DNA of 64,000 nt from a bacterium. GTDB lineage: Bacteria; Patescibacteriota; Minisyncoccia; Phycocordibacterales; UBA5272. The DNA is taken from positions 3,757 through 67,756 of the forward strand of contig JAHFNC010000004.1 in NCBI GenBank assembly GCA_023267535.1, given 5' to 3'. Positions 1,184 to 13,034 of the stretch are shown here, in pieces. Both the position numbers and the translations under genes were made by a program. The notes beneath the pieces are model-generated. The model saw only the letters and a program-made list of their open reading frames with translations, was not told the DNA's origin and did not search any database. Position 1 is the stretch's first letter. Each line of letters begins with the position of its first letter.

Positions 1184-2650
1184 ATGAGTAAATTTATGTT
1201 TGAACAAACTTTTAAGAATATAGACGACATCTTACATAAAGATGCAGGATGCGGAAGTGAGCTTGATTATGTTGAACAAACCTCATGGGTACTATTTTTG
1301 AAGTACCTCGATGATTTAGAGAAAGACAAGAAAACAGCGGCTGAACTTGCAGGAAAAAAGTACACCAACATCATATCTACTGAATACAGTTGGACTACGT
1401 GGGCTACACCAAAAGGTAAAGACGGAAAACTTGATCATCATAAAGCCTTAACTGGAGATGATTTAAAAGACTTTGTTGATCTTAAACTTTTTCCTTATCT
1501 TAAGAAATTTAAAACCACAGCTTTAAGTCCAGATACTATTGAATACAAGATTGGTGAGATTTTTTCTGAATTAAAAAATAGAATTCATAGTGGATATAAC
1601 TTACGTGAAGTTATTAATCGTATAGACGAGCTTCGTTTTCGTACTCATGCAGAAAAGCATGAAATGAGCCACTTGTATGAATCTAAAATACAGAACATGG
1701 GGAATGCTGGTCGTAATGGTGGTGAGTACTATACTCCAAGACCACTTATTACTACTATTGTTAAAGTGGTAGCTCCAAAAATTGGAGACACTATTTATGA
1801 TGGTGCAGTAGGTAGTGCAGGATTCTTATGTGAAGCTTTTGATTACCTAAAGAAGAGTAAAAACCTTACAACGAAAGATGTAGAAATTTTACAAAAGAAA
1901 ACTTTTTATGGAAAGGAAAAGAAATCATTAGCATATATTATCGGTACAATGAATATGATTTTACACGGTGTAGAAGCTCCTAATATTATCCATACCAACA
2001 CTCTTGCTGAAAATCTTGCAGATATACAAGAAAAAGATCGTTATAATGTTGTGTTGGCAAACCCACCATTTGGAGGAAAAGAACGAGTAGAGGTACAGCA
2101 GAACTTTCCAATTAAAACAGGAGAAACTGCTTCTCTTTTCTTACAACACTTTATTAAGATATTAAAAGCAGGAGGTAAAGGCGGTGTGGTTATAAAAAAT
2201 ACATTTCTTAGTAATACAGATAACGCTACGGTTAGTTTAAGAAAGTTACTTCTTGAGAATTGTAACCTACATACAGTATTAGACTTACCTGCTGGAACTT
2301 TTACAGGTGCCGGTGTCAAAACAGTCGTACTCTTTTTTGAAAAAGGGTCCTCTACGAAAAAAGTATGGTTCTATCAACTTAACTTAGACAGAAATCTCGG
2401 TAAAACAAATTCACTTAGCGAGAAAGATTTAGAAGATTTTATTAAACTTCAAAAGAATAAAGCAGAAAGTGAAAACTCTTGGAGTATAGATATAAAAAAC
2501 ATAGACCAAAAGACTTTTGATTTAAGTGCAAAGAACCCTAACAAAAAAGAAGAGGTTGCTTTGCGTTCCCCAGAAGAGATTTTGAAAGAGATGAAAGCTT
2601 TAGATAAGGAGAGTGAAAAGATATTAAGCGGTATTATTAAATTGATATGA
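1184..2650 (+). CDS. hsdM: Type I restriction-modification system, DNA methyltransferase subunit M
   Basis: 488 aa; N6-adenine MTase motif IV NPPFGG, motif I-like GSAGFL; HsdM-type N-terminal domain; first gene of M-X-S-R operon. Confidence 0.9.
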   Translation: MSKFMFEQTFKNIDDILHKDAGCGSELDYVEQTSWVLFLKYLDDLEKDKKTAAELAGKKYTNIISTEYSWTTWATPKGKDGKLDHHKALTGDDLKDFVDLKLFPYLKKFKTTALSPDTIEYKIGEIFSELKNRIHSGYNLREVINRIDELRFRTHAEKHEMSHLYESKIQNMGNAGRNGGEYYTPRPLITTIVKVVAPKIGDTIYDGAVGSAGFLCEAFDYLKKSKNLTTKDVEILQKKTFYGKEKKSLAYIIGTMNMILHGVEAPNIIHTNTLAENLADIQEKDRYNVVLANPPFGGKERVEVQQNFPIKTGETASLFLQHFIKILKAGGKGGVVIKNTFLSNTDNATVSLRKLLLENCNLHTVLDLPAGTFTGAGVKTVVLFFEKGSSTKKVWFYQLNLDRNLGKTNSLSEKDLEDFIKLQKNKAESENSWSIDIKNIDQKTFDLSAKNPNKKEEVALRSPEEILKEMKALDKESEKILSGIIKLI

Positions 2651-3714
2651 ATGAAAAAAAAGAAGTAAAACATATTTTTATAGATTCGAATATTTTTTTA
2701 GATTTTTATAGATTAGGGAAAGAAGATTTAGAGAAACTTAATCAGTTGATTGACTTTGTTAAAAATGGTGATATTAAAATATATTTAACAAAACAGGTCT
2801 ACGATGAATTTTACAGACACAGAGAAGACACCTTTCAAAAAACATACAAAGGTTTTTTAGACTCAAAAACTGATATTCAGATGAATTCTATTTTTAAGAA
2901 TTATCCAGAATATAAAAAGATTACTCTTTTGAAAAAAGCTTTAGAGAAACTTAAGTCTGACTTAGGTCAAAAAGTAGAAAGTGACATGAGTTCAAAAAGT
3001 TTAATTGCGGATGAGGTTGTGAGAAAAATATTTGAAGCCTCTTTTTATATTGATTCGGATAAGTTTTTAGAAATGGCGATTATAAGACACAGACTTGGAA
3101 ATCCACCAGGTAAAAAAAATACTAGTTATGGAGATGAAATCAACTGGGAAACATTACTAAGTGTGGTTCCTGACGGAGAAAAACTAATAATAGTTAGTAA
3201 CGATGGAGATTACGAAAGTCCAATGTCAGAAAGAAAAATCAACGGCTATTTGGAAGCTGAATGGGATAAAAAAAAGAAATCAAAAATCTATTTATACAAG
3301 TCCCTAAGTTCATTTTTTAGAGAACACAACATTGCTATTGAGTTTGAAATTGAACAAGATAAAAGTTTACTTGTAGAAAATTTGATAAACAGTGGTAGTT
3401 TTATGGTAACTCACGAAGTTATAAGAAGGCTTTCAAAGTATAATTCATTTTCAGACGACCAAATAAAAGGTCTTGCTACAGCTTTACTAGGTAACTCGCA
3501 AGTACGGTCAATTATAGAAGATGATGATGTTAGAACTTTTTATAAAATAAACTTACTGTCTAGGTCTGATATTTTTGACGATGAAATGTGGAGTGAGATA
3601 GAGTCTCTTATTATAGTTAACCCAGTTCAGGTTAATAAAGATATTGAGGATATTATTAAAAGTCTTGATGATAAAATTGATGAAGATATCAATGTGGACG
3701 ACATTCCATTTTAA
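2647..3714 (+). CDS. Hypothetical protein with N-terminal PIN-like nuclease fold, embedded in type I RM operon
   Basis: 355 aa; start ATG overlaps hsdM stop (ATGA, 2647-2650); ends 3 nt before hsdS; N-terminal IFIDSNIFLDFY (PIN strand-1 Asp) and later IIVSNDGDY (PIN C-terminal acidic motif); acidic C-terminal tail. Confidence 0.6.
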   Translation: MNEKKEVKHIFIDSNIFLDFYRLGKEDLEKLNQLIDFVKNGDIKIYLTKQVYDEFYRHREDTFQKTYKGFLDSKTDIQMNSIFKNYPEYKKITLLKKALEKLKSDLGQKVESDMSSKSLIADEVVRKIFEASFYIDSDKFLEMAIIRHRLGNPPGKKNTSYGDEINWETLLSVVPDGEKLIIVSNDGDYESPMSERKINGYLEAEWDKKKKSKIYLYKSLSSFFREHNIAIEFEIEQDKSLLVENLINSGSFMVTHEVIRRLSKYNSFSDDQIKGLATALLGNSQVRSIIEDDDVRTFYKINLLSRSDIFDDEMWSEIESLIIVNPVQVNKDIEDIIKSLDDKIDEDINVDDIPF

Positions 3715-3717
3715 TTT

Positions 3718-4839
3718 ATGAAAAAAGAAAACTGGGAAATAAAAAGTTTTGAAGAATGTCTTGAAAAAGTTGTTTATACAAACAAAATTCAAAGAAAAGA
3801 TTTTCTTGATAATGGAAAGCATCCAGTAATTTCACAAGAGAAAGATTTTGTTAATGGGTACTGGGATAATTCTAAAGATTTATTTAAGGTTAGAAAACCA
3901 GTTATAATTTTTGGTGATCATACACAAGTCTTAAAATATGTAGATTTTGATTTTGTTCTTGGTGCTGATGGTGTAAAAATACTTCAGCCTACAAGTGAGC
4001 TAGAACCAAGATTTTTTTACTATTATTTACAAAACATAAATATTGGTAGTTTAGGATACGCAAGACATTACAGATTATTAAAAGAGAGTGAAGTAGAATT
4101 TCCAAAGTCTCTTTTAGAACAGCAACGCATAGTGTCAGTTTTAGATAAAGCATTCGTTGATATATCTAAAGCAAAAGATATTGCTGAACAGAATCTTAAA
4201 AATGCAAAAGAACTTTTTGAAAGTTATTTACAGAGTATGTTTACAAATAAAGGAGATGATTGGGAAGAGAAAACATTAGGCGGTATTGCTTTTGTAAAAA
4301 GTGGAGGAACTCCTTCAAGGTCTAAAAAAGAATACTGGACAGGTAAAATAGCTTGGTATTCGTCGGGTGAATTAAATAATTTGTACACCACAACGCCAGA
4401 AAGATATATTAACGATTTAGCAATTAGTAACTCAAATGCAAAAATCTTTCCAAAAGGTTCTCTTTTAATAGGTATGTATGATACTGCGGCTCTAAAAATG
4501 TCTATATTAGACAGAGACGGTTCTTTTAATCAAGCTATTGCAGGTGTAAAACCTAATGACAAAATTGACTTAACTTTTATTTTACACTCTATCAACTCTA
4601 TCAAACCAGAATTACTTAATTTAAGACGTGGTGTTCGTCAGAAAAATCTAAGTCTTGAAAAGATAAAAAGTATCCCTACCTATGTTCCTCCACTTCAAGT
4701 ACAGAAGAATGTTGTTTCTAAATTAGGAGAACTTTCCACTGAAACAAAAAAACTTGAAGCAATCTATGAACAAAAATTAAATGACTTAGAAGAACTTAAG
4801 AAAAGTATTCTTCAAAAGGTATTTAACGGCGAACTATAA
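3718..4839 (+). CDS. hsdS: Type I restriction-modification system, specificity subunit S
   Basis: 373 aa; two target-recognition-domain repeats with conserved central and C-terminal coiled-coil spacer regions typical of HsdS. Confidence 0.85.
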   Translation: MKKENWEIKSFEECLEKVVYTNKIQRKDFLDNGKHPVISQEKDFVNGYWDNSKDLFKVRKPVIIFGDHTQVLKYVDFDFVLGADGVKILQPTSELEPRFFYYYLQNINIGSLGYARHYRLLKESEVEFPKSLLEQQRIVSVLDKAFVDISKAKDIAEQNLKNAKELFESYLQSMFTNKGDDWEEKTLGGIAFVKSGGTPSRSKKEYWTGKIAWYSSGELNNLYTTTPERYINDLAISNSNAKIFPKGSLLIGMYDTAALKMSILDRDGSFNQAIAGVKPNDKIDLTFILHSINSIKPELLNLRRGVRQKNLSLEKIKSIPTYVPPLQVQKNVVSKLGELSTETKKLEAIYEQKLNDLEELKKSILQKVFNGEL

Positions 4840-4860
4840 AAGTGCTATAATGTCAAGATT

Positions 4861-7182
4861 ATGAACGAATCTGAAACAAGGGCAGAGCTAATTGATCCAA
4901 AGCTAAAAGCTTGTGGTTGGGGTGTTGTTGAAGGATCTAAAATACTCCGTGAATACAATATTACTGCTGGTAAAATCCAAACTGGAGGTATAAGAGGAAA
5001 GCTACTTACTGCTGATTATGTATTGGTCTACAAAGGCATAAAATTGGCTGTGGTTGAGGCAAAGAGTGCAAATATAGGAGTTGGTGAGGGTGTTGCACAA
5101 GCCAAGCAATATGCAGAGAAACTAAAAATAGAAACAACCTATTCTACAAACGGAAAAGAGATATACAGTATCTGTATGAAAACTGGTGTTGAGGGTTTGG
5201 TTTCTGGTTATCTCTCACCTGATGAACTTTGGAACAAAACTTTTTCGGTTCAAAATGAATGGAGAGAGAAATTTAGTTCTATTCCTTTTGAAGATAAGAG
5301 TGGCTCTTGGCAATTACGTTATTATCAAGAAATAGCAGTAAAGAATGTTCTTGAATATGTTGCAAATGATAGGGACCGCATTTTGCTCACCTTAGCTACT
5401 GGTACAGGTAAAACAGCTATCGCTTTTCAGATAGTATGGAAACTATTTCAGACAAGATGGAATTTAAAACGTGACGGTTCTCGTCGTCCTCGTATTTTAT
5501 TTTTAGCAGATAGAAACATATTAGCCGACCAAGCATACAACTCTTTTTCTTCATTTCCAGAAGATGCTTTGGTGCGTATTAATCCTAAAGAAATAAGTAA
5601 GAAAGGAAGTGTGCCTACTAATGGGTCTATTTTCTTTACTATCTTTCAAACCTTTATGAGTGGTAAAGATGCCGAGGGAAACCCTGCACCATACTTCGGA
5701 GAATATCCATCTGATTACTTTGATTTTATTATTATAGACGAATGTCATCGTGGCGGTGCAAACGATGAAGGAAACTGGAGAGGTATCTTGGAATATTTTT
5801 CTCCTGCTGTGCAATTAGGTTTAACAGCTACCCCAAAGCGTAAAGATAATGTCGATACATATAAATATTTTGGTGAGCCAGTATATATTTATTCTCTTAA
5901 AGAGGGTATTAATGATGGATTTCTTACACCTTTTAAGGTTAAGCGTATTAAGACAACATTAGACGATTATATTTATACAAGTGATGACCAAATCATCGAA
6001 GGGGAAATCGAGGAAGGAAAACTTTATACCGAACCTGATTTTAATAAGATAATTGAAATTAAAGCGAGAGAAGAAAAGCGTGTGAAGGTATTTATGGACG
6101 AAGCAAATCAAAATGAAAAAGCTATTGTCTTTTGTGCTACTCAAGATCATGCGGCTGCGGTTCGTGATTTAATTAATCAATACAAGAAAAGTGCTGATCC
6201 AAATTATTGTGTCCGTGTTACAGCAAATGATGGAGAGATAGGCGAACAATTTTTAAGAGAATTCCAAGATAACGAAAAAACTATACCAACTATTTTAACG
6301 ACATCACAGAAACTTTCAACTGGAGTAGATGCTAGAAATATACGTAACATTGTACTCATGCGACCAGTGAACTCTATGATTGAATTTAAGCAAATTGTAG
6401 GGCGTGGTACACGTTTATTTGATGGTAAGGAATTCTTTACTATTTATGACTTTGTGGATGCTTATCACCATTTTGCGGATCCTGAATGGGATGGAGAACC
6501 GATCAGTCCAGTAGATGATGAACCTACGGAACCTAAACCACCAAAAGGGGTAGAGGGTGAACCACCTTTTCCTCCAGAACCACCAACAGAACCAAATAAG
6601 AAACTTAAGATTAAATTACGAGATGGAAAAGAACGTGAAATACAACACATGATAGCAACTTCTTTTTGGGGTGCAGACGGTAAACCTATTTCTGTGGAAG
6701 AGTTTTTACAAAACCTGTTTGGGACACTGCCTAGTCTTTTTAAGGGTGAAGAAGAGTTGCGAGAGATATGGAGTAATCCAATAACAAGAAAAAGTTTGTT
6801 AGAAAAACTAGACGAGGCTGGGTATGGAAAAGACGAACTAACTACATTACAGAAATTAATTGACGCTGAAAATAGTGATCTTTTTGATGTGTTGGAATAT
6901 GTATTTAATAGTGACGTTAAACCGATACCAAGAGAGATAAGAGTAGAAACATCACAGGAAACTATTTTTGAATCCCTTAATGATAAACAAAAAGAATTTA
7001 TTGAATTTGTGTTGAGTAAATATATTGAAACAGGTGTAGAAGAATTAGACCAAGAGAAACTACCAATACTTCTTACTAATAAATATCAGTCGCTAGAAGA
7101 TGCAAAAGATACACTAGGTGATATTGATTTGATTCGTTCGATTTTCTTCAAATTCCAAGAGAAACTATACGCAAAAGTATAA
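4861..7182 (+). CDS. hsdR: Type I restriction enzyme, endonuclease/helicase subunit R (compact form)
   Basis: 773 aa; canonical HsdR N-terminus MNESETRAELIDPKLKACGWG; PD-(D/E)xK-like ADYVLV..VVEAKS; SF2 motif I ATGTGKT, motif II IIIDECHRG; Pro-rich linker then C-terminal helical domain. Confidence 0.9.
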   Translation: MNESETRAELIDPKLKACGWGVVEGSKILREYNITAGKIQTGGIRGKLLTADYVLVYKGIKLAVVEAKSANIGVGEGVAQAKQYAEKLKIETTYSTNGKEIYSICMKTGVEGLVSGYLSPDELWNKTFSVQNEWREKFSSIPFEDKSGSWQLRYYQEIAVKNVLEYVANDRDRILLTLATGTGKTAIAFQIVWKLFQTRWNLKRDGSRRPRILFLADRNILADQAYNSFSSFPEDALVRINPKEISKKGSVPTNGSIFFTIFQTFMSGKDAEGNPAPYFGEYPSDYFDFIIIDECHRGGANDEGNWRGILEYFSPAVQLGLTATPKRKDNVDTYKYFGEPVYIYSLKEGINDGFLTPFKVKRIKTTLDDYIYTSDDQIIEGEIEEGKLYTEPDFNKIIEIKAREEKRVKVFMDEANQNEKAIVFCATQDHAAAVRDLINQYKKSADPNYCVRVTANDGEIGEQFLREFQDNEKTIPTILTTSQKLSTGVDARNIRNIVLMRPVNSMIEFKQIVGRGTRLFDGKEFFTIYDFVDAYHHFADPEWDGEPISPVDDEPTEPKPPKGVEGEPPFPPEPPTEPNKKLKIKLRDGKEREIQHMIATSFWGADGKPISVEEFLQNLFGTLPSLFKGEEELREIWSNPITRKSLLEKLDEAGYGKDELTTLQKLIDAENSDLFDVLEYVFNSDVKPIPREIRVETSQETIFESLNDKQKEFIEFVLSKYIETGVEELDQEKLPILLTNKYQSLEDAKDTLGDIDLIRSIFFKFQEKLYAKV

Positions 7183-7200: not shown

Positions 7201-9744
7201 TTAGATCATTCTTTTCTTTATGTTTCGTACAAGATCAGTGATTTCTTTCTTTGCAATATCAGGGATTTTAAATATAGAAACATCAGTTTTTAATAACCAT
7301 TCGGCACATTCCTTTCTATCATAATCCATACTTTCAATGTGGTTAGAAATTTCAATGGCTGTATGTCTACTTAGTCCGAGATTGATAAGAGAAACTTGGG
7401 TCCTTTCAAATACCCCAAACTCGAGCCACATATTTAAATCAGGGACGGAATCAAGAAACTCAGGGTGATTCATACTAAGATAATACTTTAAAATATCAAT
7501 ATAACATGAAGAATACTTTGCAAATTTAAACCTAACATATTCTTCTATATCCCCCATTGTGTTTCTGATAATTAGTGAAAGCTTTTTCTTGGGATCTCTA
7601 TTCTCCCAGTACCTAATATTAGACTTTATTATTCTAGCAAGTGGATATCCTCTCATCCAATTAGTTACTAGAATGGTGTAGTAAGGTGCGAGCGCTTCGT
7701 GGTCCCCAGAAAGAATTCTACTTATTCTTTTTATAATTGCTATGTAGCAATTAGACGCATCTAAATCGTCAGGTAAAACAGGAATTAGGTTTTTTATGTC
7801 ATCATCATAATTTACAAAATAATCAAAGAGTTTTTGTTGAGATATGGGGTTTATACCGGGATTTCTAAAAATTATATCATCTGGTATTTGAAGTGACTCT
7901 TTTACTTTTGAACACTCTACCTCAAGTTCATTAATGAAATCTTCGTCAAGAGGTTCATTTTTTAAGGAAGAGTTTTTAAGGAATTTTGTGAAATAATAAC
8001 TAAAAGCATATTCATGGTTAGAGCTAGAAGTTTCTTTAAAGTTACCTCTTATGTATTCAAGAAGATCAGTTTTATTTTCTGAAGCTTCAGTGATTGCTCT
8101 CTTAATAAAGTGCTTTGTTTTTTCTCTGATAGGTATATTATCCCAATCTTCAGGATCAATACATATAATATTTCCTTGAAATTCCTTTTTTAGGCGACCA
8201 GCTCGACCAGCGAGATTCCAAAAATCAGCTCCTGACATCGGTACTTTATTTCCTCTTTTTGGTTTTCTTATAAAAATTGATTTTGCTGGAAGGTTAACTC
8301 CTTCGAGAAGGGTTGAAGTACATACTAAGTATTTAATATGACCCTCAGAATATAATCTTTCAATTTCTTTTCTAATAACAAGTGGCATGTTGCCGTAATG
8401 AAAAGCAATCTTTCTTTCTAGAACTTTAGCTAAAGCATATTCTGGATGAATTAATTTCTTTATTAAATCAATCAATTCATTTATTTGATCATCTTCTGTT
8501 TCCTCTTTAGTTCCGACAAGATCAAAAAGTTTTTCTGAAGCATCTTCAGCATCTGCTTGTCCATTTACATATATCATGTTGCCACCTTCATTTGAACCAA
8601 GTAAGTAGCAAAAAGTAGACAGTTTTTCTTTTTCGTTTAAAGTTTGATTTAAGTTAATTTGCCCCAGTGGAGTAGATATATTTTTTAGACATAGGTTTAC
8701 GCTCCACTGCTTAGGGTGCCCCACTAATTGTGATACCCAAATTAAATTTTGATTTACGGCAATATATTCAGTAACTATAGTAGACCTATCTTCCTGGTTA
8801 CCTAAGCCATCCAGTAGAACCCCAGGGTTTTGAGAGAATGGACTACAGAATAGTATTTTTATGGCTGGTAGTCGAGTTGTAAGCTCTTCAATTTTTTGTT
8901 GTAAAAGAATACCTCTACCACCATCTCCAATTTTTTGAGCTTCGTCAATGACAAGAAAATCAATCTTAAAAGTGGGATTGTCACTTAGAAACCAATGTAA
9001 TCTTTCTTGCGTAAATATAAATAGAGATGGTTTGTTTAAGTCCATTTCATCAGGTGACTGAGGTACAGAACTTAGGTAAACAGAATAGTCTTCCTTATTA
9101 AACAATTGATCAGAAAAATCTTGCTCTACTTGATTGATAAGTGCTCTGGTAGGGACTATGTAGACAATATTTTTTGGATTCTTTTTGTCGTTTAGTTGCT
9201 CTAAAACAAAAGTATTTAGAATAAATGATTTTCCAGAAGAGGTTGGAGCAGAAGCACTTAAATAGTTTGAACTGTATGCTTTATCGTAAAAGTCTTTTTG
9301 AAATTTATTAAGATATATTGGCTCTTCATTTGTTTTTGTAAAAATGATATGTTCCACATCTCTTCTTGCATTTTCAATTTTAAAAGGTAACGGTATATCA
9401 TTATCGTAATCTGAAGGTAGATATTTCTTATGGATAGCAAGATTAATAGCTGGTTTGTTTGTTAACTTATGCAAAATGATAGATGCTCCAATTCTTTGGT
9501 TCTTCTTTGTTTCTGCATCTGTTAAACAACACTGGGCAATCCTTAATGCTGCATCTTGACAATCTGGGTTATCTGAATGTGATATTATACTTGCACACAT
9601 TAATAAATGATCCCAGTTTGGTATGTAAAATAAGTCAGATTGTTGATTTAAAATTGGGAAAAGTTTTATTACCGAATTTCTAATAATAGATAATAGGTCT
9701 TGTTGAAAGCTTTTTAAGTTATAAACTTTTTCAGGAAGGGTCAT
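7201..9744 (-). CDS. Ski2-like SF2 DEAD/DEAH-box helicase, Hachiman HamB-like candidate
   Basis: 847 aa; Walker A APTSSGKS, motif II VIDEAQ, motif V LLEGVNLPA, motif VI WNLAGRAGR; 14-nt overlap with upstream nuclease-like gene. Confidence 0.75.
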   Translation of the reverse strand: MTLPEKVYNLKSFQQDLLSIIRNSVIKLFPILNQQSDLFYIPNWDHLLMCASIISHSDNPDCQDAALRIAQCCLTDAETKKNQRIGASIILHKLTNKPAINLAIHKKYLPSDYDNDIPLPFKIENARRDVEHIIFTKTNEEPIYLNKFQKDFYDKAYSSNYLSASAPTSSGKSFILNTFVLEQLNDKKNPKNIVYIVPTRALINQVEQDFSDQLFNKEDYSVYLSSVPQSPDEMDLNKPSLFIFTQERLHWFLSDNPTFKIDFLVIDEAQKIGDGGRGILLQQKIEELTTRLPAIKILFCSPFSQNPGVLLDGLGNQEDRSTIVTEYIAVNQNLIWVSQLVGHPKQWSVNLCLKNISTPLGQINLNQTLNEKEKLSTFCYLLGSNEGGNMIYVNGQADAEDASEKLFDLVGTKEETEDDQINELIDLIKKLIHPEYALAKVLERKIAFHYGNMPLVIRKEIERLYSEGHIKYLVCTSTLLEGVNLPAKSIFIRKPKRGNKVPMSGADFWNLAGRAGRLKKEFQGNIICIDPEDWDNIPIREKTKHFIKRAITEASENKTDLLEYIRGNFKETSSSNHEYAFSYYFTKFLKNSSLKNEPLDEDFINELEVECSKVKESLQIPDDIIFRNPGINPISQQKLFDYFVNYDDDIKNLIPVLPDDLDASNCYIAIIKRISRILSGDHEALAPYYTILVTNWMRGYPLARIIKSNIRYWENRDPKKKLSLIIRNTMGDIEEYVRFKFAKYSSCYIDILKYYLSMNHPEFLDSVPDLNMWLEFGVFERTQVSLINLGLSRHTAIEISNHIESMDYDRKECAEWLLKTDVSIFKIPDIAKKEITDLVRNIKKRMI

Positions 9745-10714
9745 AGGTTATCCCAAGTGCCTCCAAGAAGTGCTTTCTAAACTCTTCCACAGAAGGAAAT
9801 GGAAGCAGAAAAACATGTATATCAAAAGTTTCAAGATTTGTATGTTTTGAAATATGTTTGACAACATTTTTTGACCAACCTTCTATTTCTTTGTTAATCT
9901 TTTCTTTTATTTGTTCAGTGGTTTCTGTGTTTGCAACGCTTGGGTATTTATCATAATCAAATCCAATGAGGCACACACCTTTATACCTTACCTGATTATG
10001 GAGAGGGTCGTCTTTGTCCAAATATTTTAATAGAGCAACTTCCAATCTCTCATCTATTACACTCAAGTTGTCCCTCATTAATTGTAAGTCTCTTTCTGCT
10101 GGAGCAGATATTCCTCCATCTGATAAAAGAAACTCTTTAAGACTTATGAAACATTTAGAGATGCCATCGTTTAAATCTTTGTACAGTTTTGATTCACCCC
10201 AATATAAAGATAGAATATCCCTTCCTTCTTCATTTAACTCCACAGAAACATGAATACCATCAGCTCCGTTCACATGGAGTTCTGGGTTTGTTTTTAATGG
10301 CATCTTACATAGTAGTTGGGGAATTTTTAGATACTCCTGAATAAGAATATAGAGAAGCATTTCACCACCTTCACCTGTCTTCTTTAGTGAAGTAAAAAGA
10401 CTTTTTGCTTTTTCAATAAGCTCGTAAGTTTTTGTGGTTGTGTTATGTTTTGTATCATATTCTTTTGCCACCTCATATTCTTTTCTTGGAATTGCATAAT
10501 CAGCTACATGCTTTGCCACAAAACGTGCAAAGTCCTTAGTGCGAGGTCTACCATTTCCGTCTAAAGTTAAAAAGTAACAATGTGAGGTTGCTTTAGTATC
10601 TTTTAAATTAACATTTGATATAACTTCAGTTATATAAGTATTTATTTCTTGTTTGCTTGTTCTCAGAAGATCAGCAATAAGTTCTGCAATATTATCTTGG
10701 TTAGCAGTAGTCAT
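9731..10714 (-). CDS. PD-(D/E)xK nuclease-like protein, Hachiman HamA (DUF1837)-like candidate
   Basis: 327 aa; candidate catalytic residues GADGIHV ... VEL ... LYWGESK (D...E.K arrangement); immediately upstream of and overlapping the SF2 helicase gene in hamA-hamB order. Confidence 0.55.
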   Translation of the reverse strand: MTTANQDNIAELIADLLRTSKQEINTYITEVISNVNLKDTKATSHCYFLTLDGNGRPRTKDFARFVAKHVADYAIPRKEYEVAKEYDTKHNTTTKTYELIEKAKSLFTSLKKTGEGGEMLLYILIQEYLKIPQLLCKMPLKTNPELHVNGADGIHVSVELNEEGRDILSLYWGESKLYKDLNDGISKCFISLKEFLLSDGGISAPAERDLQLMRDNLSVIDERLEVALLKYLDKDDPLHNQVRYKGVCLIGFDYDKYPSVANTETTEQIKEKINKEIEGWSKNVVKHISKHTNLETFDIHVFLLPFPSVEEFRKHFLEALGITYDPS

Positions 10715-10720
10715 ATTTTA

Positions 10721-11200
10721 TTAATTTAAGAATCTACTTATTGGTTCGTTGAGCAGCGATTCAGCAATTTCTATCAGAATATTATCTCTAAAGCTTTGAA
10801 AATCTTTAGCTCCATGGAAGGTGTTGCATCGTATTTGATATATACACTTCATAATATTCGTTACATCCTTTATATCAATAAGTAAAATACCCTCTAAGTT
10901 ATTTTTTGTGGGTCTCATATCCCTAATAGGTGTCTCCTTTTTTAAATCTTCTAATCTTTCTAAATATTTGGGAGAAGACCAGGTTTCTATAAAAATATTT
11001 TTTAGAATATTATCATTATTATAAAACCAGTTTAATTTATGACTGTCTGTGATATTTGCTGCATTACTTCGGAAAGACTCGTCTGTAATGTACGCGTCAA
11101 AAATCATCCAATAAATAATGAATCGAATCCATGCATCAGCTGTATTTTCATCGGCTTTCCTTTTCCATGTTCTAAGTCTTTCTATAAATTCAGGGTCCAT
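10721..11200 (-). CDS. Small HEPN-like protein (R-x4-H motif) upstream of Hachiman-like pair
   Basis: 159 aa; IYQIRCNTFHGAK contains R-x4-HG as in HEPN RNase motifs; all-helical composition; 6 nt upstream of the nuclease-like gene. Confidence 0.45.
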   Translation of the reverse strand: MDPEFIERLRTWKRKADENTADAWIRFIIYWMIFDAYITDESFRSNAANITDSHKLNWFYNNDNILKNIFIETWSSPKYLERLEDLKKETPIRDMRPTKNNLEGILLIDIKDVTNIMKCIYQIRCNTFHGAKDFQSFRDNILIEIAESLLNEPISRFLN

Positions 11201-11886: not shown

Positions 11887-12011
11887 CAAACATTTTTTAA
11901 GAAAATATCAATATTTACACTTATTAAAAATAAATATAAAATGGCAATCAGTTTGTGTTAACGGGGGATGTTCTTTTATTTTTTTTGAATCAGGAGTGGA
12001 GGGAGATAATA

Positions 12012-13034
12012 ATGAACAAGCAAGCTGTGCTCTCTATTGTTCCAAATATTCCAAACGCTGAAGACGAAGATCCTGGCGTCGCCCTATTAATATCGGCCGA
12101 CCAGCTTCTTTTTGATCCAAATCAACCAAGAAAGAGATACACGAAAAAAGGTCTTGAGAAATTGGCTAAAAGCATTCAAGACCAAGGTTTGCAACAGCCG
12201 GTGGTCGTTACCTTTGCTTATCGTAAGAAAGGCATAGATTACTATTACATCAAGTTCGGCGAAAGGCGTTATCGCGCTCATATTTTGCTTGGCTACAAAA
12301 ACGTTCCTTGTCTTGTGAAGAAGGGGACCTACGACGGCAAGCTTGATGTGGAACGAGTGCTTGCGCAGACTTCGGAAAATAATTTGCGCGAACCACATTC
12401 GCACAGCGAGATGATTAACGTCCTTCGTTTGGTCGTTGAAGACGAACGAGAAAAGTCTGATGGCGTGATTGGCTACATCGGCAAAGCTCAAGAAAGATTT
12501 GCCACAGCTCTTGGCTATACCGCTGAGGCCACCAGAAGGTATCACGTTTTGGCTAATCTTCATTCGGAGTTAGTTGAGATGTTGGATATTGAAGACGAAG
12601 AAGAAGGGGACGAACGAGAAAAGCTTAACTTCAGCGTTGCTCTTTCTTTGGCTAGAGCACCAAAAGATGCTCAGCTTGGGATTCTTGAAAGGTCAAAGCC
12701 TCACTTTGAAAAGTCTCACAATCACGGCATTGCTTTTGTTTCTGAACAAGCAAGGTCTGTTCGCGAGAGTCGTGGTGAAAAGATAGTCGGCAGGAAGCCG
12801 AGCGAATCAATTGACCTTGTCAGGAAATTTCTAACCTTCACCAACAATCGCCACGATTTGGTCTTTGGGCAAATGAAGCCAGCTGAGATAAAAGCCATTT
12901 TGGCTTCGGCGAGCGTGACCACCGTTGATGTTTTGCTTAACGCAGTCATTATGGCCGCAACAAACCTGAAATCACTTCAGGCACTGATTCAAGAAAGGAG
13001 AGATTACAATTATAGAGAATTCAGAAAGAAATAA
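12012..13034 (+). CDS. ParB-like nuclease (ParB/Srx) domain protein
   Basis: About 340 aa from ATG at 12012 (GGAGTGGAGGGAG upstream); ParB N-domain motifs GLQQPVVV and FGERRYRA; local GC about 45-50%, clearly above neighbouring DNA. Confidence 0.7.
   Translation: MNKQAVLSIVPNIPNAEDEDPGVALLISADQLLFDPNQPRKRYTKKGLEKLAKSIQDQGLQQPVVVTFAYRKKGIDYYYIKFGERRYRAHILLGYKNVPCLVKKGTYDGKLDVERVLAQTSENNLREPHSHSEMINVLRLVVEDEREKSDGVIGYIGKAQERFATALGYTAEATRRYHVLANLHSELVEMLDIEDEEEGDEREKLNFSVALSLARAPKDAQLGILERSKPHFEKSHNHGIAFVSEQARSVRESRGEKIVGRKPSESIDLVRKFLTFTNNRHDLVFGQMKPAEIKAILASASVTTVDVLLNAVIMAATNLKSLQALIQERRDYNYREFRKK

Follow-up and report, generated by a model that had tools for sequence, protein, structure and literature searches.

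Why does the type I restriction-modification (RM) operon of a patescibacterium carry an additional gene between its methyltransferase and specificity genes? The question arises from a 64,000-nt stretch of contig JAHFNC010000004.1 (assembly GCA_023267535.1, positions 3,757 to 67,756; hereafter the window), in which an open reading frame (ORF) encoding 355 aa lies between hsdM and hsdS (2647-3714, + strand). Its ATG is contained in an ATGA shared with the hsdM stop codon (4-nt overlap) and its TAA ends 3 nt 5' of the hsdS ATG, exactly as described in a first-pass annotation made from the letters of the window. That annotation regarded the product as a PIN-like nuclease, and interpreted it as a latent toxin that the RM complex restrains, as is known of PrrC and RloC. 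The nuclease assignment was confirmed, and a defence-type role for a gene embedded in, and probably co-transcribed with, the RM operon remains the most plausible interpretation; restraint by the RM complex was not borne out. From the combined evidence, we consider it probable that the product is a PIN_12 nuclease which acts autonomously, as a single protein, in defence, and that its gene is cargo of the hsdM|hsdS junction, expressed with the operon.

The protein matched the Pfam family PIN_12 (PF16289, formerly DUF4935) with 71.9 bits (gathering cutoff 32), over the complete profile (positions 1-172 of 172) and aa 10-189, which places the nuclease domain at 2674-3213 (+ strand). Its fold is that of a VapC-like PIN domain in which the acidic set for metal binding is intact; a long helical insert (aa ~60-118) and a GNPPGKK...YGDEINWE loop are also present. 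The acidic residues, on whose conservation the first-pass annotation had made the assignment depend, were invariant at five positions (D13, E54, D122, D163 and D186) in 39 homologues of 33-93% identity, as was the loop (GNPPGKK...YGDxxNWE). Because of this invariance, the protein is likely to be a catalytically competent nuclease. Comparison with the orthologue in locus L001, at a synonymous divergence of ~1, gave 113 synonymous and 21 non-synonymous differences and a ratio of non-synonymous to synonymous substitution rates (dN/dS) of 0.023: the gene is under strong purifying selection. No ATPase family was detected in the protein with Pfam, NCBIfam and PADLOC scans, and the NCBIfam scan assigned it to no family.

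The window protein is a full-length member of PIN_12, which belongs to the VapC-like group of the PIN-like superfamily (Matelska et al. 2017, PMC5499597), and it follows the common plan of that family: ~350 aa, an N-terminal PIN domain, a long helical insert after strand 2, conserved acidic residues and a C-terminal region. The PIN domain of VapC is compact (~130 aa), whereas that of the window protein carries the ~60-aa helical insert and is followed by a 165-aa C-terminal extension. What goes beyond the existing family description is the nature of the C-terminal part, which consists of a helical module also present in the PADLOC candidate PDC-S34, and of a tail whose tip resembles that of SSB (single-stranded DNA-binding protein).

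In a profile search, cluster representatives (clustering at 50% identity) numbered 923, 2577 and 4990 with E <= 1e-30, 1e-10 and 1e-3, respectively. Members were found in bacteria of the candidate phyla radiation (CPR), Proteobacteria, Bacteroidota, Chloroflexota, Planctomycetota, Actinomycetota, Legionella and one Woesearchaeote. Viral contigs yielded relatives in only 11 of 2.9 million. For the examination of gene neighbourhoods, genomes were scanned for homologues with a 10-sequence subset of the 39-sequence alignment. Among 64 genome loci, no conserved neighbour of the PIN_12 gene was detected, and parts of type I RM systems lay within 10 kb of it in ~10, in differing orders: M-AlbA_2-X-?-Abi_C-S (L016), R-M-AlbA_2-S-X (L037), X-R (L020) and M-AntA-X (L004), where X is the PIN_12 gene. 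Type III Mod genes adjoined it in three loci. The immediate neighbours were RM genes, integrases, resolvases, AAA_15/AAA_21 ATPases, RhuM, DUF3800 and housekeeping genes, and batch Pfam and PADLOC scans of the neighbours at positions +/-1 gave the same picture as the phmmer neighbour calls. The family is widespread, patchy and mostly solitary, and recurs in RM, defence and mobile contexts, a pattern which fits a defence-island or mobile-element lifestyle.

Two close relatives have other contexts. The homologue P0005 (80% identity) is a lone gene among housekeeping genes in a Saccharibacteria genome, and P0004 (83% identity) belongs to a resolvase-bearing element, where it has a DEAD/ResIII helicase on one side and two methyltransferases on the other. 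Autonomy of the window protein is proposed because no neighbour is conserved in the 64 loci, because these 80-83% identical relatives have no type I RM partner, and because DUF4935 genes are "usually mono-cistrons" (PMC5499597). As a separate observation, the contigs that carry P0004 (L065-L070) share a conserved block consisting of an HTH_17-DEAD/ResIII helicase, an 82-aa ORF, the PIN_12 gene, an N6_N4_Mtase and a 916-aa N6_Mtase/Eco57I-like protein; a large serine recombinase comes next, and the block is probably a mobile restriction-like island.

The position of the gene was examined from the side of the operon, using 80 metagenomic loci (L077-L156) whose HsdM is 80-89% identical to that of the window. 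Where hsdS was found, its start codon overlaps the end of hsdM in the same 4-nt ATGA in 58 of 71 loci, and 0.4-1.5 kb of other genes occupy the hsdM|hsdS junction in 13. The hsdS|hsdR junction carries 0.4-3.5 kb of cargo in 32 of 51 loci. The cargo forms ~40 clusters and is almost always encoded on the operon strand. It includes RhuM (12 loci, both junctions), SLFN_AlbA_2 with HATPase_c_4 (6 loci), OLD-type AAA_15 with TOPRIM, DUF4062 with or without a STAND NTPase, Fic with Bro-N, PHP with an ABC ATPase, HTH_3-Peptidase_M78 followed by a small PIN-like protein, and a reverse transcriptase. Both junctions are insertion hotspots for defence genes in this operon family. In two loci of the set (L139 and L140, 7001-9052), the HsdM ORF is extended to 684 aa, hsdR follows directly and no separate hsdS was detected; the long HsdM may be an M-S fusion or belong to a degenerate system.

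A recurrent location of homologues between hsdM and hsdS, for which the first-pass annotation had suggested a survey, was not found: the order M-X-S-R occurred in L001 only among the 64 loci, and the PIN_12 gene was present in none of the 80 loci selected by HsdM. It is for the latter reason a lineage-specific insertion, with an identical layout only in L001. As the junction sequences show, the ancestral ATGA start position passed to the inserted gene, and hsdS retained its own MKK..W..E start 3 nt past the PIN_12 stop codon. Since the gene took over the ancestral junction, translational coupling comes with the slot and is not peculiar to the PIN_12 gene.

A further line of evidence for the nature of the family came from phage-plasmids. 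Phage JL22 (gp7; L074, ON018986, 6998-7948) and ~22 P1-like phage-plasmids from E. coli, Salmonella and Klebsiella carry a homologue with 36% identity between lxc and mat (317 aa, lacking the IPF tip that is discussed below). The same interval of phage P1 holds the EcoP1I res and mod genes (L075, NC_005856, 3544-9700). No earlier description of a PIN_12 homologue replacing res-mod in P1-like phage-plasmids was found in the literature.

The C-terminal half had been described by the first-pass annotation as an unrecognised, highly acidic domain. This applies to the tail, where 10 of the last 35 residues are D or E; the bulk of the region is a HEAT-like helical module (aa ~228-322; 3328-3612, + strand) that precedes the disordered acidic tail. 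The search against defence-system models recommended by the same annotation was partially productive: aa 233-302 matched positions 297-366 of the 384-position PADLOC profile PDC-S34 (E 1.2e-13), and no PADLOC v2 model matched the PIN_12 family over its full length. The window protein is not a PDC-S34 member, as the HAD-like hydrolase core of the model was unmatched. A weak tblastn match on a plasmid led to an unannotated Phocaeicola ORF of 368 aa (L076, plasmid OY726012, 4128-5234), which is a full-length PDC-S34 member (positions 1-366, E 1e-201) with a Pfam HAD core and the helical module at its end. This ORF adjoins Schlafen/AlbA_2-like and UvrD-like genes. Divergent relatives from Chitinophagales, Flavobacterium and Pseudomonas were also considered as PDC-S34 members, and none qualified.

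PDC-S34 proteins therefore share with the window protein a C-terminal helical module of ~70 residues (NSxSFxxTH ... NxQ ... DxDVxxFY), and PDC-S34 is likewise a single-gene candidate embedded in defence operons, but its N-terminal effector is a HAD-like hydrolase where the window protein has a PIN domain. Occurrence of one module in two unrelated effector types is as expected of an adaptor or sensor, and the sharing points to a portable domain of this kind. When a 5.8-billion protein set was searched with a profile of the C-terminal module alone, only two fragments were recovered, and the HAD-module architecture was not among them. We found no earlier description of a C-terminal module common to PIN_12 and PDC-S34 in the literature.

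An experimentally supported parallel is offered by Cosus (Brc24). As reported in a preprint (bioRxiv 10.1101/2024.07.02.601719), Cosus is a single-gene defence system from an integron cassette, in which PIN_12 is the only recognised domain; it blocks phage T7, and mutations of PIN residues, for example D14A, weaken defence. The equivalent of D14 (the first acidic residue of Cosus) is D13 in the window protein. No full-length PIN_12 homologue turned up in integron-like plasmid contexts.

Taken together, a defence role is proposed for the window protein because a Hachiman system adjoins the operon, because a homologue occupies the res-mod slot of P1-like phage-plasmids, because the C-terminal module is common to PDC-S34 and because Cosus blocks T7; the defence phenotype is thus inferred in part from the Cosus parallel. 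In the proposed mechanism, the gene would be co-transcribed and translationally coupled with hsdM and hsdS from the hsdM promoter, simply as a result of its takeover of the ancestral ATGA junction. The PIN domain would act as the effector by metal-dependent cutting of RNA or single-stranded nucleic acid, and the helical module and acidic tail would have a regulatory, sensing or targeting role, through which the nuclease stays harmless up to the time of infection. The outcome would be protection from phage or other invading DNA, independently of HsdMS.

Several points weigh against an autonomous defence nuclease. The tight coupling with hsdM and hsdS has been kept in L001 over a synonymous divergence of ~1, which would be compatible as well with a functional tie to the methyltransferase in this lineage. 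The neighbours in the 64 loci derive from crude ORF calls, and single-sequence phmmer may miss divergent RM genes. Cosus and the window protein have only a Pfam domain name in common and are likened by description, not by sequence; Cosus probably represents a shorter, different subfamily, because its mutated positions (T12, D14 and D96) do not fit the spacing of the window family (F11 invariant, D13 and D122).

The acidic tail suggests a refinement that is compatible with the autonomous defence nuclease, and which we put forward tentatively, as a possibility that is more likely wrong than right. The tail (aa 323-355; 3613-3711, + strand) was predicted with low confidence (predicted local distance difference test (pLDDT) 52-67) and ends in D-D-I-P-F-COOH (...NVDDIPF; 3697-3711, + strand), a pentapeptide with which E. 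coli SSB also ends. The SSB C-terminal tip (SSB-Ct, DDDIPF; PMC5872125) is the docking motif for many SSB partner proteins (PMC5872125, PMC10018359) and, like the tip of the window protein, terminates a flexible acidic linker. The window protein has no OB fold and is not itself an SSB. The tail might accordingly imitate the SSB tip in one of two ways: it could dock the nuclease onto SSB-binding proteins from host or phage (helicases, exonucleases, and proteins of the primosome or of recombination), or it could serve as a decoy or an auto-inhibitory pseudo-substrate, to be displaced once phage proteins grab SSB tips.

Conservation of the tip is consistent with such mimicry. A terminal [ILVMAF]P[FWY] was present in 67 of 120 homologues, and was kept in 44 of 142 independent cluster representatives (~0.06 expected from the internal frequency of the [ILVMAF]-P-[FWY] tripeptide) despite a preceding linker of 22-66 aa that is unalignable across the family. 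Relative to L001, the tail (aa 321-355) shows 15 synonymous and 0 non-synonymous differences. Pentapeptide-repeat folds act as DNA mimics in Qnr and MfpA. In Legionella/Tatlockia PIN_12 proteins of 640-660 aa (L029, 9929-11911; L031, 10010-11929), pentapeptide repeats replace the acidic tail, suggesting that the C-terminal appendage is some kind of mimic. On the other side, the argument is one of sequence resemblance, and acidic tails with a terminal aromatic residue can have other docking roles. Between half and two thirds of family members do not have the tip, among them the E. coli P1-type, Marinobacter and Legionella versions, and hence it is not essential to family function. No SSB gene whose tip could be compared for co-variation was found in the ~1.9 Mb of fetched loci. 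No description of SSB-tip mimicry by such a nuclease was found in the literature, nor any earlier mention of the SSB-like tip. It is conceivable, if doubtful, that a sizeable PIN_12 clade including the window protein carries an SSB-tip mimic on a helical adaptor module.

The interpretation that the first-pass annotation had preferred is a guardian relationship as in PrrC, in which the HsdM2S/HsdR complex would bind and silence the PIN protein, and a suicide nuclease would be freed when a phage anti-restriction protein disables the RM system. The PrrC precedent (PMC12707154) speaks for it, as does the enrichment of the family near type I RM genes (~10 of 64 loci). The absence of intergenic space between hsdM and the PIN_12 gene and its near absence before hsdS, conserved in L001, would ensure co-expression with the methyltransferase. 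PrrC and RloC are, like the window gene, nuclease genes inside an RM locus (type I, or type III; type I in the window), but they combine an ABC-ATPase sensor domain with a different nuclease domain, and no such ATPase domain was detected in scans of the PIN_12 protein. PrrC is almost exclusively embedded in type I RM loci (bioRxiv 10.1101/2024.01.29.577857), whereas most PIN_12 homologues, including those with 80-83% identity, have no type I RM partner. In P1-like plasmids, moreover, a homologue replaces an RM system and does not accompany one, and the coupling that prompted the idea is the ancestral junction of the operon, common to unrelated cargo. We therefore judge a latent, RM-held toxin to be rather unlikely.

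The gene could instead be an addiction or stabilisation module. It would then encode a VapC-like toxin with its cis-antitoxin built in, as the C-terminal module or tail, and would stabilise the RM island with no role against phage. The VapC-like fold and the lack of a separate antitoxin gene would agree with this (no small VapBC-type ORF lies upstream, where hsdM is located, and no small neighbour recurs in the 64 loci), and PIN genes coupled to type I RM systems without antitoxins are known (PMC5499597). A single chain without processing, however, cannot yield the differential stability that such a module requires. The architecture is conserved and its modular C-terminal domain also occurs in a HAD enzyme that is not toxin-like, and in some genomes the PIN_12 gene is solitary among housekeeping genes; an addiction module is decidedly unlikely. 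A housekeeping RNA-processing nuclease that entered the operon by chance is highly unlikely: PIN domains also function in rRNA and tRNA maturation (PMC5499597), but the distribution over phyla is patchy, with distant taxa sharing 35-40% identity, and the gene travels on phage-plasmids and prophage-like contigs, neighbours RM genes, integrases and Abi genes, and is missing beside close HsdM relatives.

The operon that surrounds the PIN_12 gene encodes a complete type I RM system, with characteristic Pfam domains in all three subunits. These are the methyltransferase subunit HsdM (1184-2650, + strand; N6_Mtase, E 2e-61, and HsdM_N), the specificity subunit HsdS (3718-4839, + strand; Methylase_S in two stretches, E 2e-28) and the restriction/translocase subunit HsdR (4861-7182, + strand; ResIII, HSDR_N, Helicase_C and EcoEI_R_C). 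The true start of hsdM is probably Met5 (ATG at 1196), because alignments to relatives begin at residue 5. The 12-mer AAGTGNTATAAT occurs twice in the 64 kb (0.13 occurrences expected). One copy, the extended -10-like motif AAGTGATATAAT (1171-1182, + strand), ends 1 nt 5' of the annotated hsdM ATG and is the putative promoter of the hsdM-PIN_12-hsdS unit; the other, AAGTGCTATAAT (4840-4851, + strand), is likewise an extended -10-like motif, ends 9 nt 5' of the hsdR ATG and may be a separate hsdR promoter. Since the 12-mer stands only before hsdM and hsdR in the window, it suggests a classical two-promoter layout with very short leaders or none, in which the PIN_12 gene falls within the hsdM-hsdS unit. 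Generic sigma-70 and terminator scans inside the operon gave nothing exceeding shuffled controls.

The genetic code of the window required attention, as the genome that holds the closest homologue of the PIN_12 protein (94% identity) is labelled Candidatus Gracilibacteria, and in that lineage UGA is read as glycine (code 25). This code would abolish the ATGA stop/start overlap, and it was ruled out. TGA is rare in the window, where it is the stop codon of 5 of 49 long ORFs and occurs inside no real gene; for these reasons the standard code applies and the ATGA overlap is genuine.

Downstream of hsdR, a Hachiman system with a third ORF is encoded on the opposite strand (7201-11200, - strand), convergent to hsdR. 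It comprises hamB (7201-9744; PADLOC HamB, E 6e-285) and hamA (9731-10714; PADLOC HamA, E 5e-121), which overlap by 14 nt. The co-oriented ORF (10721-11200, 159 aa) lies 6 nt upstream of hamA; it had no Pfam match and a weak PADLOC match to DzbB (E 1.2e-4), and may have an accessory function in the Hachiman system. The stop codons of hsdR and hamB are separated by 18 nt, between which no terminator-like hairpin was found. The RM operon and the Hachiman system form a small chromosomal defence island, and the remainder of the 64-kb window consists of housekeeping genes. A ParB_N-domain protein of 359 aa (11955-13034) is encoded directly past the Hachiman operon, at the island edge.

The first-pass annotation had taken the M-X-S-R order with a PIN-like protein for a module that was not known to have been described. 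PIN-like genes coupled to type I RM operons, without antitoxins, were already reported in 2017 (PMC5499597), and genes embedded in type I RM, BREX and DISARM operons have been mined as defence candidates, giving a catalogue of 17,432 genes that is the source of the PADLOC PDC models (bioRxiv 10.1101/2024.01.29.577857). An embedded gene may also act on its own: TgvAB of Vibrio cholerae VPI-2 is nested in a type I RM operon, as is the window gene, and acts independently of the RM enzyme, without HsdR (PMC11411939). TgvAB consists of two proteins that form a GmrSD-like type IV restriction system, whereas the window gene encodes a single PIN protein. On account of these reports, and of its membership in PIN_12, the gene is of a known kind. 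It represents one more case of the established pattern in which type I RM operons serve as landing pads for defence genes, and is ordinary cargo in a known hotspot; its unusual feature is the SSB-like tip of the tail.

For the PIN_12 family as a whole, thousands of members and a homologue that substitutes for an RM system in P1-like phage-plasmids make it a good candidate for single-gene defence. The SSB-like tip offers a concrete hypothesis on the targeting or triggering of a nuclease of this kind. We found no description in the literature of targeting or sensing through the SSB hub for any defence system; if the tip truly engages the pocket with which replication, repair and recombination enzymes dock on SSB, the window protein would be an immune nuclease that rides on the SSB interaction hub, or that senses its hijack.

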